Made by a program: the position numbers and the translations under genes
Notes under the pieces: model-generated
Seen by the model: the letters and a program-made list of their open reading frames with translations, nothing else
The model's database searches: none
What the model was told of the DNA's origin: nothing
Assembly: GCA_019058365.1 (NCBI GenBank)
Contig: JAHPZE010000002.1
Location: 256,001 to 320,000 of the forward strand
Direction: 5' to 3'
DNA: 64,000 bases
DNA from: Promethearchaeota archaeon
Lineage (GTDB): Archaea; Asgardarchaeota; Lokiarchaeia; Sigyniarchaeales; SOKP01
Shown here: one piece after another, positions 22,986 through 49,595 of the stretch
Position numbering within the stretch: the stretch's first letter is position 1
How the letters are laid out: the number at the start of each line of letters is the position of its first letter

Positions 22986-23612
22986 ATGAAATCAATGGAT
23001 CCTAAAGACGGTGAAAATGAAATTGAGAAATTATTACAGATACTTAGTAAAGTTCAAAATATCTACTATAAAAAAAAAGAGCAACTCGAAGAGTTGCAAT
23101 CAGAGATTAGTGAATTAAGAGAAGTATTAAATTTCTTAAATTCTCTCATATCAGGAAAATCATTTCACAGCGCAGACGAGATTTACTCAAAATCATTTAT
23201 TAAAAAAGTGGATGGACCAATTGAAGAACAATACTTCGTAGAAGATATCTCAAAAGAAAGAGTTGAGGGAACAAATATCAAAAGAAAGATTTTTTCTAAA
23301 AATAAGAATAATGATGAAGAATTATTATGTATCTTGAACTTTTATGATTTGAATCGGGTTGTAATAAAAATTGTTGAACCAGAAAAGCTGTCCATAAAAG
23401 AATCTTCTGAAGAATTTATCCGTATCTTCATTAAAGGAGCACTTGTAGAAATAATAGAGAATAATCCTAATATGAGCTTGAAATATGATTATTATAAAAG
23501 TTCGGATGTAATTAAACATATTAATATTACTAATTTGAAATCAATAAAAGAATATGATATAATTACTTCAAAAATGAGAGAGCTTTTAAGCCAAAGAGCT
23601 TGGAAAGGATAA
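22986..23612 (+). CDS. Hypothetical protein with an N-terminal coiled coil
   Basis: 208-aa ORF with a heptad-rich N-terminus. Confidence 0.6.
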   Translation: MKSMDPKDGENEIEKLLQILSKVQNIYYKKKEQLEELQSEISELREVLNFLNSLISGKSFHSADEIYSKSFIKKVDGPIEEQYFVEDISKERVEGTNIKRKIFSKNKNNDEELLCILNFYDLNRVVIKIVEPEKLSIKESSEEFIRIFIKGALVEIIENNPNMSLKYDYYKSSDVIKHINITNLKSIKEYDIITSKMRELLSQRAWKG

Positions 23613-32166: not shown

Positions 32167-32586
32167 TTAATGAAAAAGTACTTTTAGACCTAATTCTTTG
32201 TATAATAAATTTAGATTTAATTCAAATTGCCCTCTAACAATATCATAATGAGTGAATTTACCTTTTTTAAAACTTCTTATAAGCCCAACACTTTCAAGAA
32301 TTCGAAGATGATGTGATATAGATGGTTGTGATTTATCTAAGATTGCTTCTAGTTCGCAAACGCAATGATCATTTTCCTTTAATACAGTAATTATCTTTAA
32401 ACGCTCCTTATTTCCTAATGCATAACAAAATTGTGTTAATTTCTTAAAATTATCTTCGTTTTCTAAATTAATTCCGAAATCTTGCAAATCGTGGAAGTAT
32501 GTCTTAACATCTATTTCACTCATATCAACGCAGCCTTCCAGGGAATCCATTATTTCAATAGCACGTCTTCTATTAATAATATTCAC
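32167..32586 (-). CDS. arsR: ArsR/SmtB transcriptional repressor
   Basis: ALGNKERLKII, HCVCEL and SQPSISHHLRIL motifs; divergent from acr3. Confidence 0.88.
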   Translation of the reverse strand: MNIINRRRAIEIMDSLEGCVDMSEIDVKTYFHDLQDFGINLENEDNFKKLTQFCYALGNKERLKIITVLKENDHCVCELEAILDKSQPSISHHLRILESVGLIRSFKKGKFTHYDIVRGQFELNLNLLYKELGLKVLFH

Positions 32587-32782: not shown

Positions 32783-33838
32783 ATGAGTATTTCAGAAACA
32801 GAAGAAATTTCAATAACAAATAAAGATGAATCAAAAAAACTCGGTTTATTCGAAAAATTACTTCCTCTATGGGTAGCACTATGCATTTTCATAGGAATTC
32901 TCTTTTCCATATATATCCCAGGTATAAGTCAAACTATGAATACATTTACCATTGGTCAAATTTCATTACCGATTGGTATTTGTTTATTCCTAATGATGTA
33001 TCCTGCAATGTTAAATTTACAAGTCTCAGAGTTAAAAAAATTAAGTAAAAATCCTAAACCTATAATTTTAACAATTCTATCTAATTGGGTGATCGCCCCT
33101 TTTGTAGGTTTGCTTATGGCACGTATCTTTCTACATGGATATGAGCAATTAATTGTCGCTGTTATTTTATTAAGCTCAAGTCCATGTACTGCTATGGTAT
33201 TAGTCTGGGGATGGATGGCAAAAGGAAATCAAGAACAGAATGTGGTAAATACGAGCCTTAATACAATAACTATAATATTTGGATATGCTCCTATGGTTAC
33301 ATTATTAACAGGTATTCAGAATATTCCCATTGATTGGAAACCCCTAGTTTTATCAACGTTTGTCTTTATTGGACTTCCATTATTGCTTGGAATAATTAGT
33401 AAAAGGTTATTAATATCTACCAAAGGTAAAGAGTGGTTTAACAATACATATCGACCTATAGTTGGAAATGTATCGATTGTTGCTCTACTCACAACATTAG
33501 TGGTTCTTTTCTCTATGAATGGAGAAGTCTTAAGTGATAATCCGGATCTTTTATTATTAGTATCAATTCCCCTATTGCTTGGATTTGTAATTGTTGTTGG
33601 ATACAACATTTTAGTTACGAAAGTATTTAAACTAAAATACAAGGAAGCTATAATCACAGTTATCATCGGGTCTTCCAGTCATTTCGAAATTGCGATAGCA
33701 ACTGCTATTGCAATATATGGGATAGGATCTATTGCTGCTTTAGGTACTACAATGGGGTTATTCTGGGAGGTTCCAGTTATGCTTTCAATTGTCTATTTAG
33801 GTAGGTGGCTAAGAAAAAGAAGTTTTTGGAAGTCCTAG
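32783..33838 (+). CDS. acr3: Acr3 arsenite efflux transporter
   Basis: MMYP, NWVIAP, PCTAMVLVW, SHFEIAIA and EVPVML motifs. Confidence 0.93.
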   Translation: MSISETEEISITNKDESKKLGLFEKLLPLWVALCIFIGILFSIYIPGISQTMNTFTIGQISLPIGICLFLMMYPAMLNLQVSELKKLSKNPKPIILTILSNWVIAPFVGLLMARIFLHGYEQLIVAVILLSSSPCTAMVLVWGWMAKGNQEQNVVNTSLNTITIIFGYAPMVTLLTGIQNIPIDWKPLVLSTFVFIGLPLLLGIISKRLLISTKGKEWFNNTYRPIVGNVSIVALLTTLVVLFSMNGEVLSDNPDLLLLVSIPLLLGFVIVVGYNILVTKVFKLKYKEAIITVIIGSSSHFEIAIATAIAIYGIGSIAALGTTMGLFWEVPVMLSIVYLGRWLRKRSFWKS

Positions 33839-33926: not shown

Positions 33927-34205
33927 ATTAGTGAAGAAAATTCAGAAAAATTAAAAGTTGATATTTATGTCCCATTAGATGCTTGTTCGTGTGAATGGGA
34001 TAAATTTATGAATCGAGTATTTGTTGAACTAACACCTTATATAAAATATATTGATTATGATACTAAGAATCTAAATTCAGAGGAAGCTAGGGAACTCAAT
34101 CTTTACAATAAATGTGTAGTTGTAGATGGACAGAAAAAATTTTCGTCCTCTTTTACACTTAAAAAGGAATTACCGAACCTTCTTAAGGCTAAAGGATTTA
34201 TTTAG
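33927..34205 (+). CDS. Small thioredoxin/ArsD-like protein with a CxC motif; start codon probably non-canonical
   Basis: The frame is open from 33909, so it extends upstream of the ATG at 34008: SEENSEKLKVDIYVPLDACSCEWDKFMNRV... The only start candidates there are ATA (33921) or ATT (33927) after a GGGTG Shine-Dalgarno-like motif. Confidence 0.6.
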   Translation: MSEENSEKLKVDIYVPLDACSCEWDKFMNRVFVELTPYIKYIDYDTKNLNSEEARELNLYNKCVVVDGQKKFSSSFTLKKELPNLLKAKGFI

Positions 34206-34238
34206 ACTTTAGAATCTTTTTATTAAAATTTAATAAAG

Positions 34239-34715
34239 GTGAGTATAAAAATTAAAAAAATTAAGTTAACGGTTTTTGCTCCAGATCCCGAAAAGAAATT
34301 ATCTAATGGTCTTGATTTCAATTTAAAAGTTGCTGATGATGGCTCGATTATCGATGTCTTAAGCAATCTAGATAAATATTTTTACGATAATCCTGAAAAC
34401 TCCATTTTCCCTATCTATAAAGGACTAATACACAGTTATCTTCAGCTCATATGGGATCCTGAAACGAATTTAATTTATGATGATTGTGCTGTAAACGCTT
34501 ACGGACCAAATAAAGAATTCATGCCATTACATGAAGATATAAATTTTACTTTATATCCTGATAGTGAAATAACAATAGTAGTCCATGCTGATTGATGAGC
34601 TGATGTTATGAAAGAACGATTGGATTATGGCACATTCAAACGGATTTTATTGAAAACTTATGGAAAAAACCACGAAACTTTTGCTCATTATTTTAAAGAT
34701 AAAAGAAATAACTAA
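34239..34715 (+). CDS. Ubiquitin-like (beta-grasp) putative selenoprotein A with tandem UGA-UGA (34593-34598); 158 aa with read-through
   Basis: In-frame TGA TGA followed by a 38-codon tail homologous to the tail of paralog B, then a SECIS-like hairpin. Confidence 0.72.
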
Positions 34716-34718
34716 TAG

Positions 34719-34778
34719 GTTGAATGATGCCTTTCAAAAAATAATTGTGAAAGGTTGACAATAGGATTGCTTCCTATA
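34719..34778 (+). promoter_or_regulatory. Eukaryote-like SECIS element (AUGA...AA...GA) plus a second small hairpin
   Basis: ATGA-T-GCCTTTCA-AAAAATAATTG-TGAAAGGT-T-GA, then ATAGGA-TTGCT-TCCTAT. Confidence 0.72.
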
Positions 34779-34832
34779 AATATAAATTTTAATCGAATTG
34801 TATAAATAAGCTGTCTTATTTTTAAAACATAT

Positions 34833-35831
34833 ATGGACTTTTTCACACATATGTTTATGGGGGTTTTAGCGGGTCTATTTTCATTAACCAAGTTAAGTCC
34901 AGAAGCTATTATCCTTATGTGGATTATGACCTTTTTACCAGATTTCGATGTCTTCTTAGGGCCACTCCAAAAAATAAGAAAAGCGTATTTTCTTTCGCAT
35001 AAAGCTGGTTCTCATTCTTATATTATAGGATTTATTTTTACTGGAATTGTTAGTTTTTTTATATCTATATTTAGAAATGTTTTATTCATTGAGGTCTGGT
35101 TTGCTGGATTCATAGGATATAGTATCCATGTCTCATTAGATTTTTTTGCTGCTTCAAAAATACCAATTTTTTATCCAATCTCGAAAAGAGAATATAGATT
35201 AATTGCTGATAGAGCTGTTAATCCAATATTGATGATTTTTTCTTGTATAAATCTTCTGGTTTTAATAGCATTTTATTTTACATTACCTTATTATCAAATA
35301 CTTATGAACCTTGCTTTCTTTTATCTGTTTGTTTATCTAATATATTTTGTGATTAGAGCTTTTTTAAGAACTATAATACAGCTGAAAATTCCTAGAAATC
35401 AGAAATATATTCCTGGTCTTCTTCCATTTTACTATTTCATTTATGAAAAAATTTTGGATAATGAATCTACCACTTTTAATTTAAAAAAAAAATTTGTATT
35501 TTCATCTAAAAAACAAGATTTAATAAATCAAACAATTTCAAATGTTTCAGATGAATTCACCTTTTTTGAATTAGCTAAGCAAATTAGTCAAGAGTACAGA
35601 TTTTATCATAAATGGAATTATGTTCTTCCTTTTATTCATGAAAATAAGGATTCAGTTAATGTTGTTTTGATCTTAGCTGAAAGTTTTTCACAATCTCTCC
35701 GGCATAAATCAATTAAACGAGAAATGTCCTCTTATTATATCTCAATTCTTTTTGATAAAAGTTCAAAACAAGTAATTTCAAAAACTGAAGGATTTGGTTC
35801 TTTTAAGAAATGGGAAAACAAAGATTGGTAA
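34833..35831 (+). CDS. YdjM-like membrane metal-dependent hydrolase
   Basis: MDFFTH, LPDFD, HKAGSHS and HVSLD motifs. Confidence 0.85.
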   Translation: MDFFTHMFMGVLAGLFSLTKLSPEAIILMWIMTFLPDFDVFLGPLQKIRKAYFLSHKAGSHSYIIGFIFTGIVSFFISIFRNVLFIEVWFAGFIGYSIHVSLDFFAASKIPIFYPISKREYRLIADRAVNPILMIFSCINLLVLIAFYFTLPYYQILMNLAFFYLFVYLIYFVIRAFLRTIIQLKIPRNQKYIPGLLPFYYFIYEKILDNESTTFNLKKKFVFSSKKQDLINQTISNVSDEFTFFELAKQISQEYRFYHKWNYVLPFIHENKDSVNVVLILAESFSQSLRHKSIKREMSSYYISILFDKSSKQVISKTEGFGSFKKWENKDW

Positions 35832-35928
35832 AATCAATGTTAATAATAATTTCTATTTAATAATGAAGATAAATGTCATTTTTCTAACAATATTTTAATT
35901 ATTTTGCATAAATATTATTTACTTAGAA

Positions 35929-35994
35929 TTTTCTTCAACATTCACACTAAAGAAAGAATTACCCAAACTTCTTAAAGCTAAAGGACTTATTTAA
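35929..35994 (+). pseudogene. C-terminal remnant of the CxC thioredoxin/ArsD-like gene
   Basis: FSSTFTLKKELPKLLKAKGLI* matches FSSSFTLKKELPNLLKAKGFI* at 34140-34205. Confidence 0.8.
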
Positions 35995-36027
35995 AATTTA
36001 GATATTTGATTTGAAATCTTAATAGGG

Positions 36028-36504
36028 GTGATTATTAAAATTAAAAAGATTACTTTTAAAATTAGTATACCTTCAATGGATTTACAAAAAGGCAAAGCAT
36101 TTATTGTACAAGTAAAAGATGATGCTACTTTTGTTGAAGCTTTAGCAATGGTAGATAAATATATTTTTGAAAATCCGCATGAATCGATATTTCCAATATA
36201 TGAAGGTTATATTCATAATTATTTACAGTTGTTTTGGGACCCAGAACATAATATAATCTATGAAGATGTTGGGATAATGCCTTATGGTCCTGATGAAGAG
36301 GGTAATTTGAGAAGTTTTATGCCAATTCGAGATAATTTAGATTTCAACTTATTTCCTAACAGTGTTATAGATCTACAACCAGATTCTGGATGTTGATGAG
36401 AAAAAGTGAGAACTCGGTTAGATATAGGTAAATTTAAATCTATTTTAAGAGAAAAATTTGGAAAATATAATAAGGTTTTTGATCATTATTTTAAATCTAA
36501 ATAA
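36028..36504 (+). CDS. Ubiquitin-like (beta-grasp) putative selenoprotein B, GC-UU motif (TGA TGA at 36394-36399); 158 aa with read-through
   Basis: Paralog of the gene at 34239; 34-codon conserved tail after TGA TGA, then a SECIS-like hairpin. Confidence 0.72.
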
Positions 36505-36510
36505 TATAGA

Positions 36511-36570
36511 ATTGAATGAGATCTTTTAGAAAATATTAGTAGAAGATTGACATTAGGAGAGCTTCCTATA
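36511..36570 (+). promoter_or_regulatory. Eukaryote-like SECIS element (AUGA...AA...GA) plus a second small hairpin
   Basis: ATGA-G-ATCTTTTA-GAAAATATTAG-TAGAAGAT-T-GA, then TAGGA-GAGCT-TCCTA. Same geometry as the element at 34719. Confidence 0.72.
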
Positions 36571-36660: not shown

Positions 36661-38070
36661 ATGGAAAAAGTCAAATTTAAAGAAATAAGAAAATCACATA
36701 AAGGCATCACTAAGCTTTCTTATGAAGTTACTCAAATTTTAGGAAATGATCCGAATAGATCTCCGTTATATTCTTTATTATATGTAATAAATAAGGAAGA
36801 AAATACTAAAGAAGAAATTTATAGCTATTTTAAATATTTCTATGTTAATGAATTTGCTAATATTAGGCTAAAACAACCTGAATTAGATGATTTATTATTA
36901 GATGGAATTACTAAAACTTTAATTCAAAAACAAAACAATACTTATTCTTTAACTGAAAAAGGAAATGAAGTTTTAACTAAATGCAAAACAGTTAATTTAG
37001 TCACAAATAAAGCGTTAGGATTCTTTTTTAGTGAAAAAGTTGTTTTAATTTTCTCTTTAATTTGCTTAATTTTTATGAGTTCACTTAAAATAATTGTTGG
37101 ATTGAATGCAGGCAGTGATGCGTTATTTAACGAGGGTATTGAGAATTTTACAGATATAATAAAGATATTTATAATTACTTTAAGTATTAAATTGGGGAAA
37201 GATAGGTTAGGGGCAATCGCAATCATTATTTTAATGTTGATAACAGGAATAAATTTGATAATAGCTTCGGTATTTTCAATTTTTCAAACCGATATTATTT
37301 CTCCATCATATTTTACGTTTATATTAATGTTTATCTCGATTTTACTAAACTTAATGTTGTTAGTTCTAAAAAATTTCGTTGGAAAATTACAAGCCAATTT
37401 TGCATTACTCTCCGATGCTAAAGATAATGTAATTAATATTAGATTATCATTAGGAGTAATAATTGGACTAATTTTTGCATTATTTGGAATTTATTGGGTA
37501 GATTCTATTGTTGGTATAGTAATTGCTAGTTTAATTATATTTGACGGGTTAGAGACACTACTAGCATTAATCAAATCTGGTGAGGATATTGATATTGACA
37601 GCTTTAAATTAAGCTTAGATAAAGCCTTTGAATTTAAAATTGCACATTGGATATTAGTGGTTATTGAAGAAGAAAGGCTTTCCATTCACCAATTAAATGA
37701 GAAATTTAATGAGTCTATTAACAAGGGATATGAAATTTTTGGTATTTGGGCAATATTTGGACTTTCTAGTATTGAAACATTTAGCATTCAATATATTTTA
37801 AACCTTATGAAAAAAAGAGGTTTATTTTTTGAACAGGATAATAAAATATATCTTACTGATAAGGGGAAAAAGCAATATAATAATGCTTTATCTCAAGAAT
37901 TAAAGAGAGTTTCAAAAGATAAGAAAAAATATAAAGATTGGAAACCTCCAAGCACGATAGTAAGAGTTTTATGGTGTATTTTTGGAATTCTCACTCCAAT
38001 TATCTTAATCATATTAACAATTTTTGTTGGACCAATTATTTATAATTTTATAATTGATTTAATTGGATGA
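36661..38070 (+). CDS. Cation diffusion facilitator-like transporter with flanking winged-helix domains
   Basis: CDF TM core (SDALFNEG, WVDSIVGIVIA); wHTH wings YSLTEKG and IYLTDKG. Confidence 0.7.
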   Translation: MEKVKFKEIRKSHKGITKLSYEVTQILGNDPNRSPLYSLLYVINKEENTKEEIYSYFKYFYVNEFANIRLKQPELDDLLLDGITKTLIQKQNNTYSLTEKGNEVLTKCKTVNLVTNKALGFFFSEKVVLIFSLICLIFMSSLKIIVGLNAGSDALFNEGIENFTDIIKIFIITLSIKLGKDRLGAIAIIILMLITGINLIIASVFSIFQTDIISPSYFTFILMFISILLNLMLLVLKNFVGKLQANFALLSDAKDNVINIRLSLGVIIGLIFALFGIYWVDSIVGIVIASLIIFDGLETLLALIKSGEDIDIDSFKLSLDKAFEFKIAHWILVVIEEERLSIHQLNEKFNESINKGYEIFGIWAIFGLSSIETFSIQYILNLMKKRGLFFEQDNKIYLTDKGKKQYNNALSQELKRVSKDKKKYKDWKPPSTIVRVLWCIFGILTPIILIILTIFVGPIIYNFIIDLIG

Positions 38071-43808: not shown

Positions 43809-45782
43809 ATGACTCATTTTAAAACTTATCCTTTTACTGCTATTGTAGGACAAGATCTTATGAAACTTGCGCTTATTCTAAACGCAATAAATCCAAAAAT
43901 TGGTGGACTCTTAATAAAAGGGACAAAAGGAACTGCAAAATCAACCGCTGTAAGAGCTTTAGCAGATTTACTTCCTGAAATTGAGATTATTAAAGATTGT
44001 CCATTTAATTGTAATCCATACGTTCTAAAAGAATCATGTCATGAATGCCAACATAAAATAATTGATAAAAAGTTGAAGAATACTGATATAGAATTTCGTA
44101 AAATGCGCGTTATTAATCTACCTATAAATGCCACTGAAGATAGAGTAGTAGGGACAATTGATATTAAAAAAGCACTGGAAGAAGGATTGAAAGCTTTAGA
44201 ACCGGGAATTTTAGCAGAAGCAAATAGAAATATTCTTTATATAGATGAAGTAAATCTACTTGCTGATAATGTGGCAGATGTATTATTGGATAGTGCGGCA
44301 ATGGGAATTAATAATATTGAACGAGAAGGTATTAGTATTCATCACCCTTCTAATTTTATCTTAGTAGGAACGATGAATCCTGAGGAAGGAAATCTGAGAC
44401 CTCAACTTTTAGATCGATTTGGATTAAGTGTGGAGGCAAAACCTATTTTAAATATCAATAAACGAGTTAAAATAATAAAATACGTTGAAGACTATCATTA
44501 TGATCCTCATAAATTTCACGATAAGTTCGAAACTAAACAAAAATTATTAAGAGAGAAGATTGTTAAGGCTCGTGAAATTCTTAATAAAGTTAAAATTTCA
44601 GATGAACAATTAGAAAACATTGCAAAATTATCTATTAAACTGGAAATTGATAGTCACCGTGCAGATATTACTATAAATATAACAGCAAAAACTATTGCTG
44701 CTTTTCATGGAAGAATCAACGTTTTAGATGAAGATATAAAAATAGCAGCAAGATTGGCATTAGCACATCGTTTAAGAAAACTTCCATTTGAAGAACAAGC
44801 AATAAATGAAGATGATATCGAAAAGATGTTTGAAGAACAAGATAAGGAAGAAGCACAGAAATTGAATATAAATAATCCAGAACATCGAAATAATAAAGAA
44901 ATTATAAATCTAAAAGAGGAAATTTTCGATATAGATACTAAGATATCTACAGATGGACTATTAGAAAAAAAAAGAATTGTAACAGATATGAACACCTCTG
45001 GTCAAAGAATATTACACCCTACTCGTGATAAAAAGGGGAAATATATTGGTGGTCAAAAACCCAAAGATTTTAATTTTAAATCGTCTTCGGATATTGCTAT
45101 TCTTGAAACTATTAATAAGGCCGCTTTAGAACCTGAAAATAAAAATGCTTTTAAAAATGGAGCAAAATTAGAAATTAAAAATGAACATATATATATTAAG
45201 AAAAGAATTGGAAAATCAAGCAATTTATTTATTTTCTGTGTTGACGCTTCAGGATCGATGGGAGCAAATGAAAGAATGATAACCGTTAAAGGAGTGATAT
45301 TTTCTATCCTTCAATCTAATTATGTATATCGCGATAAAGTCTCATTAGTTGTTTTTCGTGGAGACGATGCAGAAGTTATTTTACCTCCCACTCGAAGTAT
45401 TGATTTAGCATATAAATTATTAAAAGAAATACCTACAGGAGGTACAACACCACTAATTAAAGGGTTAGTAAAAGCATTAGATATTGCTCTTGAAGAGAAA
45501 AGAAAGAAAACAGGATATATACCCTTGATCATTCTTATTTCTGATGCCAGAGGAAATGTATTTTATAAGGACGCTATAGACGATTTAGTAAAAACTGGTA
45601 AAGAAATTTCTAAAAATCAAATTGATATGATTATTATTGATACAGAAGGCTTGGATGTCAAATTAGAAATTAATAAAAAATTATCTGAATCAGCAAATGC
45701 GAAGTATTATCATATTGATACCATGAATAAAGAAAAAGTAAATGAAATTCTGGGAATGGAAGGATTATTTGAAAATATCTAA
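43809..45782 (+). CDS. Class I chelatase AAA+ subunit fused to vWA (ChlI/ChlD-like)
   Basis: [27 protein letters not shown] and MNPEEG motifs; vWA VDASGSM. Confidence 0.9.
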
Positions 45783-45791
45783 TTGTGAATA

Positions 45792-48700
45792 TTGATTATG
45801 AATCAAAATATAGATAATACGAGAGATACACCTAAAATTACATTAATTACAGCTTCTGTTTTTTTGAAATGGTTAACCGAAGGTATTCACGAGATTTATA
45901 GTCAATTTGGAAGGTTATTCGATTTTAAAATTTTTTTTCTTAATGATTTGGACTCAGGAAAAATATCAAAAGAGGAAGTTCAAGAAGCTATTTATCAATC
46001 TAAAGTTATGTTAATTGATATCCGAGGAAATTCTCCTACAGTTGAACTATTGGTAAAATCTTATGAAGAAATGGAAAAAAATCAACCAGAATTATTTGAT
46101 ACCAAAGAAATAATAGCATTAGTGGGAGGGAATAGCGAAATAAGAGGTTTAACAAAAATGGGGCCCTTTCAAGCCCGAAAAATACCTTCTCCTCAAAATA
46201 GGGAGTATAATATCGATGAAATACCAGATTTAACGAAAGCAGTAAGATTTGGACAAAGAATGACTGAGTTTTTGAAATTTTTAGGAAAAGTATTCCCTTT
46301 TAAAGTATTAAGACATGCGCGCTATTGGGTCATAATGATGGATTACTGGGTACATGGATTGGGAGGTATCGCTGAGAATCATAAATACATGCTCCTGTTT
46401 CTTTTAAAGCACTATTTAGGATATAAGAATATTAAGGTTCCCAAACCAAAAAAGATACCCTCTTTTGGCATTTATGATCCTCAATTGAATGAATATTTTA
46501 ATAATACTGAAGATTATTTTAGAAAAAAGCCAATAGACCATAATAAACAAACTATAGGAATATTTTTTTATGGAGGATTATACTTTGAACAATCTTTACC
46601 TATAGTAAAAGAATTTATGAAAAATTTCTCAGAATTTAATACTCTTCCTGTTTTTTCTGATGTTTTAACAAATGTAGAAGCTTATCAAGAATTATTTTTT
46701 AAAGGTGGAGTAAAATTAATAAGCGCTGTTATTAATCTTCAATATTTTCAGTTAAATGGGGGTCCTTTTGGTGGAAATACCTATATAACAAGGGATTTAT
46801 TTAAAAAATTAGATATCCCACAATTTAATCCAATTATACAATATGATATGTCTTTTGAGGAATATACTAAATCAAATGAAGGGATTAACCCCATTAACCA
46901 AGTGATTGCAATTGCAATGCCCGAATTAGATGGAAGAATAGAAATGATTACTGTTGGCAGTCTTAAAAATTTAGGATATTCTGATGATTTAAAATCCAAT
47001 ATTTTAGAAGTACAACCAATAATTGAAAATGTTAAATTCTATGCTCAAATGGTTAAAAAATGGTTATATTTGAGACTAAAAGAAAATTCTGAGAAAAAAC
47101 TAGCAATTATTATTTATAACTATCCTCCTGGGGAAGATAAAATAGGTAATGCTGCATATTTAGATGTGTCTGAGTCAATCAAGAATTTAATAGAAAAATT
47201 AATTAAAGAAGGATACAATACAGAAAAAATCCCTGAAAACAAAAATTTAATGGATTTATTTATTGATTTTGGTGCTGTAAATACACCAAAATATATGAAG
47301 ATCCAAAAATATAATGGACATAAAGTCTCTTTACAAGTCTATCTTAAATTCTTTAAAAATCTTCCTTTACATCTCCAAGATGAAATTATTGAATATTGGG
47401 GACCTCCACCCGGTAAGATTATGGTAGACAATTCACATCTCAAATTACCCATTATTCAATTTGGTAATATATATATTTGTCTACAACCCTCCAGAAGTAA
47501 AGTATCTGGAGATCCTAATGAATATCATAACAAGAATTTACCCCCTCATCATCAATATTTCGCTTTTTATCGTTATTTAGAAAATATTTTAAATATAGAT
47601 GCCATAATTCATGTTGGAACTCATGGGACTGAAGAATTTCTTCCAGGCAAGGAATGTGCTGGTTGGATTTATGATTTTAATTTAAACTTAATTAGTAGTA
47701 TACCAAATATTTACTATTATCATATTACAAATACTAGTGAATCAGCTATCGCTAAAAGAAGAAGTAATGCGATTATTATTAATCATGCTGGACCTTCATT
47801 CAAAAACGCGGGATTGTATCAAGAATTTGCTCAGTTAGAGTTATTAATATCTGAATATCAAAATACCAACCTTTCTTTTAGCCTTAAAACCCAAAAGAAC
47901 AATAGAATCGATGATCTCGAAAAAGAAATTAAATATTTAGCAAAAAATATGAATATTGATTACGAACATATAGCAGAGTTGGAAGATAAATTATATAGAT
48001 ATAAAGCTTCTGTAATTCCCATGGGGCTTCACATATTAGGAAAATCTTATTCTTCTCAACAAAAATTTGATCTAATTCGAATGATTTTATTACACTCAAC
48101 TGAAAAACCGGATTATGTTGAAGAATTTCTGTCATATTTTAAGAACAAAGAAAAAATTGATGTAAAAAAGGTTAAAAATTACTTAGACACTTTTTTTAAG
48201 AGTAATGCAAATCAATTGTCTTTTGAAGATATAAATCAAAAGTTAGTATCTGAATATAGTATAAGTGAAGAAATAAATCAATTAACAATAAAATGGATAT
48301 TGTCTTTAAAAAACAGAATTGAAAATTCTCTTGAATTAGACAATATCATCCATGCTCTGGAAGGAGGATATATTGAGCCAGGATTAGGAGGGGATCCAAT
48401 CCGTTCTCCTCATATTTATCCAACTGGAAAAAATTCATATGGTTTTGATCCACGGCTAATACCTAATTCTACTGCAATAAAACGAGGAAATGAAATAGCA
48501 GAAAAATTAATTCAAAATTACAAAACTAATAATAATGAGTGGCCCGAAACTGTTAGTGTAGTACTATGGGCCTTTGAAACTATGAAAACTGGGGGAGAGA
48601 CTATTGGGCAAATTTTTAATTATTTAGGAGTTAAATCCGTTAAAAATAAATCCATTTGGACCACTGAATTAGAAATCATACCTTTAGAAGAAATGAATCA

Positions 48701-49595
48701 TCCGAGAATCAATGTGATTATTACAATTTGTGGTATCTTTCGAGATACATTCCCTTATCATCTAGAATTAATTAATAAAGCAATTGAATTAGTAGCAGAG
48801 CTAGATGAAGATATTGAAAATAATTTTGTAAAAAAATCGATGTTTACATTGAAACAGAAAGGAGTAGAGAATATCGAAGCACGTGTATTTGGTCCACCTC
48901 CAGGAAAATATAATACAAATTTAACAGAGATAATAGCAGCTGGAAAGTGGGATGATGAGACAGAATTGGCAGAAGATTACCTTAAAAATATGAGTTTTGC
49001 ATATATGAAGAACCAGAAAGTAAGACAATTAGAAAAGAATTTTAGATTAAATATTAATGAAATTAAATTAATGAGTCAAATAAGAGATTCGAGTGAATAT
49101 CAAATAACAGACTTAGATCACTACTATGAGTTTACTGGAGGATTAGCTCGTACATACAAACAAATTAATGGAAAAGACGCAAATGTTTATATAGCAGATT
49201 CTTCTAGTAAAGAAATTAAAATAAATACTTTAAGGGAAAGCATTAAAGAAGGCGCGATAACGCGTTCGTTGAATCCTAAATGGATTAATGGTTTATTAAA
49301 GCATAAGTATCATGGCGGTCAAAAAATAGCTGAAAGAGTAGAAAACTTTCTTGGCTTATCTGCTACAACTCATGAAGTAGATAACTGGATTTGGGATAAA
49401 GCATATAATCAATATATAGAAAACGAAGAATTGAGGGAACGTTTAAAGGATAATAACAGGTTTGCAATGATGGACATAATAAAAAATATGCTTCAAGCTA
49501 ATAACAGAGGTTATTGGGATGCTAATGAAGAACAAATAAATAATTTGAAAAAAATTTATCTTGAAATAGAAAATTGGGTTGAATTAAAGTACTAA
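45792..49595 (+). CDS. CobN/BchH-type chelatase large subunit
   Basis: AMPELDG, YNYPP, HVGTHG, PTGKN and LNPKWI motifs. Confidence 0.9.
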   Translation: MIMNQNIDNTRDTPKITLITASVFLKWLTEGIHEIYSQFGRLFDFKIFFLNDLDSGKISKEEVQEAIYQSKVMLIDIRGNSPTVELLVKSYEEMEKNQPELFDTKEIIALVGGNSEIRGLTKMGPFQARKIPSPQNREYNIDEIPDLTKAVRFGQRMTEFLKFLGKVFPFKVLRHARYWVIMMDYWVHGLGGIAENHKYMLLFLLKHYLGYKNIKVPKPKKIPSFGIYDPQLNEYFNNTEDYFRKKPIDHNKQTIGIFFYGGLYFEQSLPIVKEFMKNFSEFNTLPVFSDVLTNVEAYQELFFKGGVKLISAVINLQYFQLNGGPFGGNTYITRDLFKKLDIPQFNPIIQYDMSFEEYTKSNEGINPINQVIAIAMPELDGRIEMITVGSLKNLGYSDDLKSNILEVQPIIENVKFYAQMVKKWLYLRLKENSEKKLAIIIYNYPPGEDKIGNAAYLDVSESIKNLIEKLIKEGYNTEKIPENKNLMDLFIDFGAVNTPKYMKIQKYNGHKVSLQVYLKFFKNLPLHLQDEIIEYWGPPPGKIMVDNSHLKLPIIQFGNIYICLQPSRSKVSGDPNEYHNKNLPPHHQYFAFYRYLENILNIDAIIHVGTHGTEEFLPGKECAGWIYDFNLNLISSIPNIYYYHITNTSESAIAKRRSNAIIINHAGPSFKNAGLYQEFAQLELLISEYQNTNLSFSLKTQKNNRIDDLEKEIKYLAKNMNIDYEHIAELEDKLYRYKASVIPMGLHILGKSYSSQQKFDLIRMILLHSTEKPDYVEEFLSYFKNKEKIDVKKVKNYLDTFFKSNANQLSFEDINQKLVSEYSISEEINQLTIKWILSLKNRIENSLELDNIIHALEGGYIEPGLGGDPIRSPHIYPTGKNSYGFDPRLIPNSTAIKRGNEIAEKLIQNYKTNNNEWPETVSVVLWAFETMKTGGETIGQIFNYLGVKSVKNKSIWTTELEIIPLEEMNHPRINVIITICGIFRDTFPYHLELINKAIELVAELDEDIENNFVKKSMFTLKQKGVENIEARVFGPPPGKYNTNLTEIIAAGKWDDETELAEDYLKNMSFAYMKNQKVRQLEKNFRLNINEIKLMSQIRDSSEYQITDLDHYYEFTGGLARTYKQINGKDANVYIADSSSKEIKINTLRESIKEGAITRSLNPKWINGLLKHKYHGGQKIAERVENFLGLSATTHEVDNWIWDKAYNQYIENEELRERLKDNNRFAMMDIIKNMLQANNRGYWDANEEQINNLKKIYLEIENWVELKY

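Follow-up and report, generated by a model that had tools for sequence, protein, structure and literature searches.

Two genes with tandem in-frame UGA codons at an arsenic locus of a Lokiarchaeial genome very probably encode members of a class-wide selenoprotein family

Two paralogous genes with double TGA codons in an acr3 locus

The window analyzed here comprises 64,000 nucleotides of contig JAHPZE010000002.1 of a Promethearchaeota archaeon (GCA_019058365.1, positions 256,001 to 320,000), the assembly holding both genes amounting to 4.74 Mb at 29% GC; coordinates refer to the window unless a contig is named. A divergent gene for an ArsR/SmtB-family regulator (32167..32586, minus strand) is followed on the plus strand by genes for the arsenite efflux transporter Acr3 (32783..33838, TIGR00832 above cut-off), a small thioredoxin-fold protein with an invariant CxC motif (33928..34205), the first gene under study (copy 1, 34251..34715), a YdjM-family membrane protein (34833..35831), the second gene under study (copy 2, 36040..36504) and a cation-diffusion-facilitator (CDF) transporter with winged-helix domains (36661..38070). 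Copies 1 and 2 are not adjacent: in addition to ydjM, they are separated by a decayed duplicate of 126 nt (35927..36052, plus strand, 78% identical to 34138-34263) that covers the 3' end of the CxC gene and the ribosome site and appears to be the scar of the event that placed two paralogs in one locus. As the corresponding locus of close relatives consists only of acr3, the CxC gene, copy 2 and the CDF gene, copy 1 and ydjM probably arrived by insertion. The CxC gene, the usual upstream neighbor in f1, one of the seven families of the class Lokiarchaeia, is unannotated; gene calling from ATG only misses its true start, and the product matches no family. We suspected it to be ArsD; ArsD is not among its fold matches. 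A scan for sigma-70 promoters gave matches at chance level. Elsewhere in the window (43809-49595), a chelatase-type AAA/vWA gene and, after it, one for a CobN-like large subunit can be recognized from the list of open reading frames alone.

An earlier note on this DNA had described two genes that appear to stop at TGA-TGA and continue in the same frame with homologous tails, and both frames are as described. In copy 1, which belongs to a D-U-U-A subtype (U, selenocysteine by read-through), the tandem TGA occupies 34593-34598 and the frame then stays open until TAA at 34713-34715. In copy 2, of a G-C-U-U subtype, TGT-TGA-TGA (Cys-Sec-Sec, 36391-36399) directly follows the last beta-strand of a beta-grasp domain, and the frame runs on through a helical tail to TAA at 36502-36504. 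The copies are ~43% identical, and the two motifs align without a gap in pairwise and multiple alignments, the first TGA of copy 1 coming to lie opposite the Cys codon of copy 2, which is the conserved Cys of the family; the alignment of one TGA with a Cys codon claimed previously thus holds. The length of 158 residues given for each protein is correct if counted from GTG (34239 in copy 1), but in both genes this GTG is probably part of a GGTGA ribosome-binding site, and translation probably starts at ATT (34251 and 36040), yielding 154 residues each. This assignment is based on the homologs, 72 of 86 having ATT, ATG or ATA at the codon 8 nt past the ribosome site, which is ATT here (start column: ATT 56, ATG 11, ATA 5, TTG 2, GTG 2). 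ATT, the commonest codon at the family start column, is likewise the likely start after a GGTGA site at 33928, the CxC gene.

A family distributed throughout the Lokiarchaeia

Homologs are present in 137 of 161 Lokiarchaeia genomes (about 85%), in all seven families of the class, and mostly as single-copy genes. Single and profile queries did not find the family in 239 sampled genomes of other Asgard classes, save for two borderline matches (E about 9e-4). Every full-length match contains two or three TGA, and the tandem pair is TGA-TGA in all 86 genes extracted. Three motif types can be distinguished: x-C-U-U in 50 genes from all families of the class, D-U-U-A in 32 genes forming one f1 clade, and U-G-U-U in four genes whose clade is nested within f1. 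The window carries one gene each of the first and second type. The family tree has no reliable root, so that G-C-U-U is the most widespread but not a proven ancestral form. In the cultured Promethearchaeum syntrophicum, the ortholog DSAG12_01295 (WP_147662378.1) is annotated as a truncated hypothetical protein of 119 residues.

One D-U-U-A copy (L024/L138, genome G029, contig C23) is interrupted by TAA near codon 78 and keeps a SECIS that it shares with an intact upstream paralog, and the Loki-clade paralogs P0056 and P0079 have wholly lost the Cys/Sec loop and retained the tail.

A coding tail in frame with the domain

As an estimate of chance, TGA-TGA terminates only 11 of 4,847 long open reading frames in this genome, and at least 32 open codons follow 11% of the reading-frame ends. 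Conservation of TGA-TGA throughout the 86 homologs rules out a chance origin of the tandem TGA and its open tail. Over the first 30 codons past the site, frame 0 is open in 86/86 genes and the other two frames are closed in 82 and 81. Single-base differences within the tail point the same way, with synonymous to nonsynonymous ratios of 2076:806 in frame 0 and of 281:2918 and 144:2708 in the other frames; no tail was found out of frame.

Searching 1.84 billion proteins with an HMM gave 92 matches, many of which are truncated annotations that stop exactly ahead of the UGA, and a few of which were called with TGA as Trp. A separate clade among them, including the Bathyarchaeia hypothetical proteins UCH02879.1, MEM2920734.1 and MFP3985191.1, has the homologous domain, the conserved Cys and the first half of the tail in one continuous open reading frame and provides independent support for domain and tail forming one protein. 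These proteins differ from the Lokiarchaeial family in having only one Cys, no UGA, a shorter tail and unrelated gene contexts. The earlier note had looked to homologs with Cys at the TGA positions for support; no natural homolog with Cys at both U positions was found, so that a single Sec/Cys pair is shown. The first U of D-U-U-A pairs with the family Cys, and the two U of G-C-U-U lack any Cys homolog among the sequences found. One homolog of the Loki clade has C-V-S, and no SECIS match was obtained beside its gene, a single case of joint loss.

It has to be considered that the genes simply end at the double TGA and that the tail is a separate micro-ORF, a caveat raised previously, or that UGA is read as Trp. 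In the D-U-U-A type, an ATG at +5 is in fact invariant (32/32) and preceded by a GATGA-like ribosome site, truncated forms populate the databases, and some gene callers read W-W. On the other hand, 16 of the 50 x-C-U-U genes have no ATG, GTG or TTG in the first eight tail codons, the two codons following TGA-TGA are conserved with synonymous change, and the ATG inside TGATGA opens just 2-14 codons in most genes. TAA is the main stop codon, yet neither TAA nor TAG replaces TGA in any of the 86 homologs, and TGA is not reassigned, because it ends 955 of the 4,847 long open reading frames. Furthermore, a dedicated SECIS would be without a target. We therefore regard termination at the double TGA, or its decoding as Trp, as very improbable, a separate micro-ORF keeping a small residual probability in the D-U-U-A type with its invariant ATG. 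Coupling in the -1 frame via the ATG inside TGATGA was considered separately and rejected.

SECIS elements and selenocysteine machinery

Each gene is followed by a lokiSECIS core on the plus strand (34724..34758 and 36516..36550) composed of AUGA, a stem of 9 nt, an A-rich loop of 11 nt with G as its last base, and GA. The ATGA starts 8 nt (copy 1) and 11 nt (copy 2) past the stop codon, confirming the SECIS-like hairpins reported within about 10 nt of each gene. The published lokiSECIS has the same build (PMC4989117). For 76 of 86 family genes, a core was found no more than 110 nt from the stop, versus 1.1% in two controls; of the ten exceptions, three share the element after the next gene, three were found by a covariance model, one is cut by the contig end, and in three none was detected. 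In the SECIS alignment, 94.8% of cells are paired, with compensatory changes at 12 of the 13 base pairs. Because the covariance model is biased toward the family, giving only a weak hit for the HdrA SECIS (E 0.05) and missing the type II element of selD, a strict pattern scan of the genome is the better cross-check: it returned 18 matches, eight of them after TGA-containing genes, namely PrxL, three VhuD, HdrA, copies 1 and 2, and one small membrane ORF. Rfam, which has no lokiSECIS model, gave no meaningful match to the SECIS region.

A second small hairpin lies just 3' of each core on the plus strand (34762..34776, with 5 bp, GC in the loop and covariation, and 36554..36568) and appears to be present in all eight strict-scan elements after TGA-containing genes. 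A hairpin of this kind with GC in the loop also follows the SECIS of PrxL, VhuD, HdrA and selD, and it covaries across the UU family. It is possibly an unrecognized part of lokiSECIS; no description of it was found in the excerpts of the two lokiSECIS sources (PMC4989117; PMC11227280).

The genome encodes SelD, SepSecS, a PSTK-like kinase and EFSec (over cut-off, or full-length or near-cut-off matches with E 9e-44 and 3e-71), with two selD genes that contain in-frame TGA. A tRNA-Sec candidate, read by eye on contig C34 (about 23029-23185), has a UCA anticodon, 9/4 acceptor/T stems, a long variable arm and introns, because of which ARAGORN and Rfam RF01852 did not detect a tRNA-Sec in the genome. 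SepSecS lies immediately downstream of it and EFSec at a distance of about 4.5 kb, in agreement with the published description for Loki. Two introns seem to be present (D loop, T loop), compared with a T-loop intron only in the excerpted account of the published Loki tRNA-Sec. Across the class, SepSecS occurs in 152 of 161 genomes. The expected co-occurrence with the Sec machinery is thus found, and the selenoprotein reading of the earlier note has survived on the strength of the invariant TGA-TGA, the coding tail, the SECIS elements and this machinery. That both TGA of both genes are read as selenocysteine is, on these sequence grounds, highly probable.

Fold, proposed mechanism and function

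Pfam, NCBIfam and PDB sequence searches did not assign a family (SAMP1 came closest, with E 0.019 in one of 54 members). AlphaFold models the protein as a SAMP/MoaD-like beta-grasp that places the Sec motif at the usual diglycine position, in agreement with the MoaD/ThiS/Urm1-like domain proposed previously; Foldseek gave no match below E 0.001 and SAMP1 at probability 1.0, the best fold matches being SAMP1, CysO and MoaD. The family shares with SAMP, MoaD, ThiS, CysO and Urm1 a last strand leading into P-x-x-G-C where these have P-x-x-G-G, and differs from them in its helical tail, its domain insertions and the lack of any Pfam or NCBIfam match. As the earlier note had it, the C-terminal Gly-Gly is absent: G-C, D-U or U-G stands at that position and 32-53 residues follow. 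No E1 (UbaA/MoeB) was noticed in a general inspection of 40 neighborhoods.

We consider it very likely that each of the two genes encodes a full-length selenoprotein and that both belong to one Lokiarchaeia-wide family, for which a metal(loid)-related role is proposed. The lokiSECIS right past the stop would direct EFSec and tRNA-Sec to two adjacent UGA (three in the U-G-U-U subtype), and the product would be a SAMP/MoaD-like beta-grasp with G-C-U-U or D-U-U-A at the diglycine position and a helical tail, which, because this position is replaced and the tail follows, would not undergo ubiquitin-like adenylation or conjugation. Two or three neighboring selenol/thiol groups on a surface loop could bind a soft metal(loid), for example As(III), Hg(II) or some methylated intermediate, and hand it to Acr3, ArsM or an HgcAB-like methylation module, with the neighboring CxC thioredoxin serving as reductant. 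Clustered selenols acting as a high-affinity site or carrier for soft metal(loid)s are the most likely of the functions considered, although we propose this only tentatively.

Three other functions compete with such a carrier. The first is a redox relay comparable to the G-C-U-G arm of mammalian thioredoxin reductase: the vicinal Cys/Sec could alternate between a selenol and a diselenide or selenylsulfide state, and the protein, aided by the CxC thioredoxin and ferredoxin, could serve as reductant of ArsM, ArsC or corrinoid intermediates. We hold this to be fairly unlikely, since the CxC neighbor is found only in f1 and f4 and the three selenols of the U-G-U-U subtype exceed the need of a two-electron relay. 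The fold matches to SAMP1, CysO and MoaD, the near-universal, mostly single-copy occurrence and the proximity of f5 and f2 genes to aldehyde:ferredoxin oxidoreductase plus ferredoxin would suit a MoaD-like carrier of sulfur, selenium or metal for the maturation of tungsten/molybdenum-pterin or other metalloenzymes, with later recruitment into arsenic clusters; however, the free Gly-Gly end required for thiocarboxylate chemistry is missing and the oxidoreductase link extends to just three loci, which leaves such a carrier unlikely. Finally, tandem UGA could render full-length synthesis steeply selenium-dependent; the protein would then be a selenium store or sensor, with some regulatory output set by how much product is truncated relative to full-length. 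Termination at the first UGA would leave a product whose end coincides exactly with the diglycine position, in the G-C-U-U type a ubiquitin-like domain with a Gly-Cys end, the most widespread ending (50/86), but the truncated D-U-U-A and U-G-U-U products would have Asp or Ala as their last residue and the Bathyarchaeial homologs have no stop at that site; we consider this improbable.

Lineage-specific association with arsenic genes

The arsenic setting emphasized in the earlier note is common in f1, with acr3, arsM or arsC in 13 of 17 wide loci, and extends to f4 (acr3 in 2 of 5 loci), but none of the 17 loci of the other five families, P. syntrophicum included, contains ars genes. In these 17 loci, the neighbors include CDF transporters in four cases and aldehyde:ferredoxin oxidoreductase in three. 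The arsenic link is therefore lineage-specific, with a recurring metal theme, and arsenic binding is a plausible but not a family-wide role of the metal(loid) carrier.

ArsM carries a fused CxC domain in three loci (L017, L022, L027). Six of the 17 wide f1 loci hold a ferredoxin gene and a gene fusing a methyltransferase to an HgcA-like protein (the cap motif is NVWCAARG; the HgcA match falls below cut-off). The methyltransferase part is CpaM-like and the ferredoxin Cys-rich in the ars clusters of many relatives (L132, L133, L137, L182, L184, L186); in the present genome, the fusion is encoded on another contig (C26:85219-87246). A connection to arsenic is also known from a bacterium in which ArsR controls hgcAB (bioRxiv 10.1101/2022.10.17.512643).

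Relation to known selenoproteins

A 2024 survey of Asgard archaea, limited to a search for known families, lists seven selenoprotein families (Huang 2024, PMC11227280). The UU family appears neither among these seven nor in Mariotti 2016 (PMC4989117). Table 1 of a May 2026 catalogue of 119 prokaryotic families contains no UU motif and no MoaD, ubiquitin or beta-grasp entry (PMC13188914), no model of NCBIfam release 20 matches, and literature searches with limited coverage of subscription papers found no paper on the family. In line with the earlier note, which did not recognize it among known selenoproteins, we rate the tandem-Sec ubiquitin-fold family as a new selenoprotein family, overlooked so far because surveys require known or Cys homologs.

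With the known lokiSECIS selenoproteins SelD, HdrA, VhuD, VhuU and PrxL, the UU family shares the Sec machinery, the type I SECIS geometry just past the stop, the occurrence of several Sec per gene and, in some loci, one SECIS for tandem genes (PMC4989117; PMC11227280); it is unrelated to them in protein sequence and differs in its adjacent UGA-UGA. Consecutive Sec-Sec has a precedent in algal PDI_e (G-U-G-U-U; PMC7539508), whose local motif is that of the U-G-U-U subtype, but which is eukaryotic and has a thioredoxin fold, so that homology is not expected. The bacterial CU-motif proteins SaoL, SaoB, SaoC and HgcA resemble the family in their vicinal Cys/Sec and metal(loid)-handling neighborhoods and differ in fold, in-frame SECIS and C-U instead of U-U (bioRxiv 10.1101/2022.07.06.499078).

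The Asgard selenoproteome, thought to comprise seven families, thereby gains one that occurs in most Lokiarchaeia. The family implies that an archaeal eukaryote-like system without SBP2 decodes back-to-back UGA, offers a compact natural reporter of lokiSECIS function, links ubiquitin-like folds and SECIS evolution as two themes of eukaryogenesis, and points to selenium use in Asgard arsenic and mercury chemistry. The most far-reaching proposal, i.e., that it represents both the first beta-grasp selenoprotein and the first prokaryotic Sec-Sec protein, a near-universal, selenium-armed carrier for arsenic/mercury methylation modules in Lokiarchaeia whose tandem UGA possibly switches between a Gly-Cys-ended and a full product according to selenium supply, is rather doubtful as a whole.

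Two further genes deserve mention. The small membrane ORF of the strict scan, located outside the window (86 aa, contig C16:318234-318491, L140/L142), carries G-G-C-G-U-G and has a lokiSECIS to itself; its homologs, found in 12 of 61 genomes, all have one TGA (often G-U-G-C), 10 of the 12 with a SECIS and none with an NCBIfam match, making it a candidate for a second new selenoprotein. A GDCCVxC-domain protein (NF041374), which bears no archaeal mark in the 2026 catalogue, has four in-frame TGA and a lokiSECIS in 26 of 161 genomes of the class (e.g., L027:1986-2201 in G043, L154-L168, and C1:3273949 in P. syntrophicum, G021), and its gene sometimes adjoins a UU gene and uses the same SECIS.
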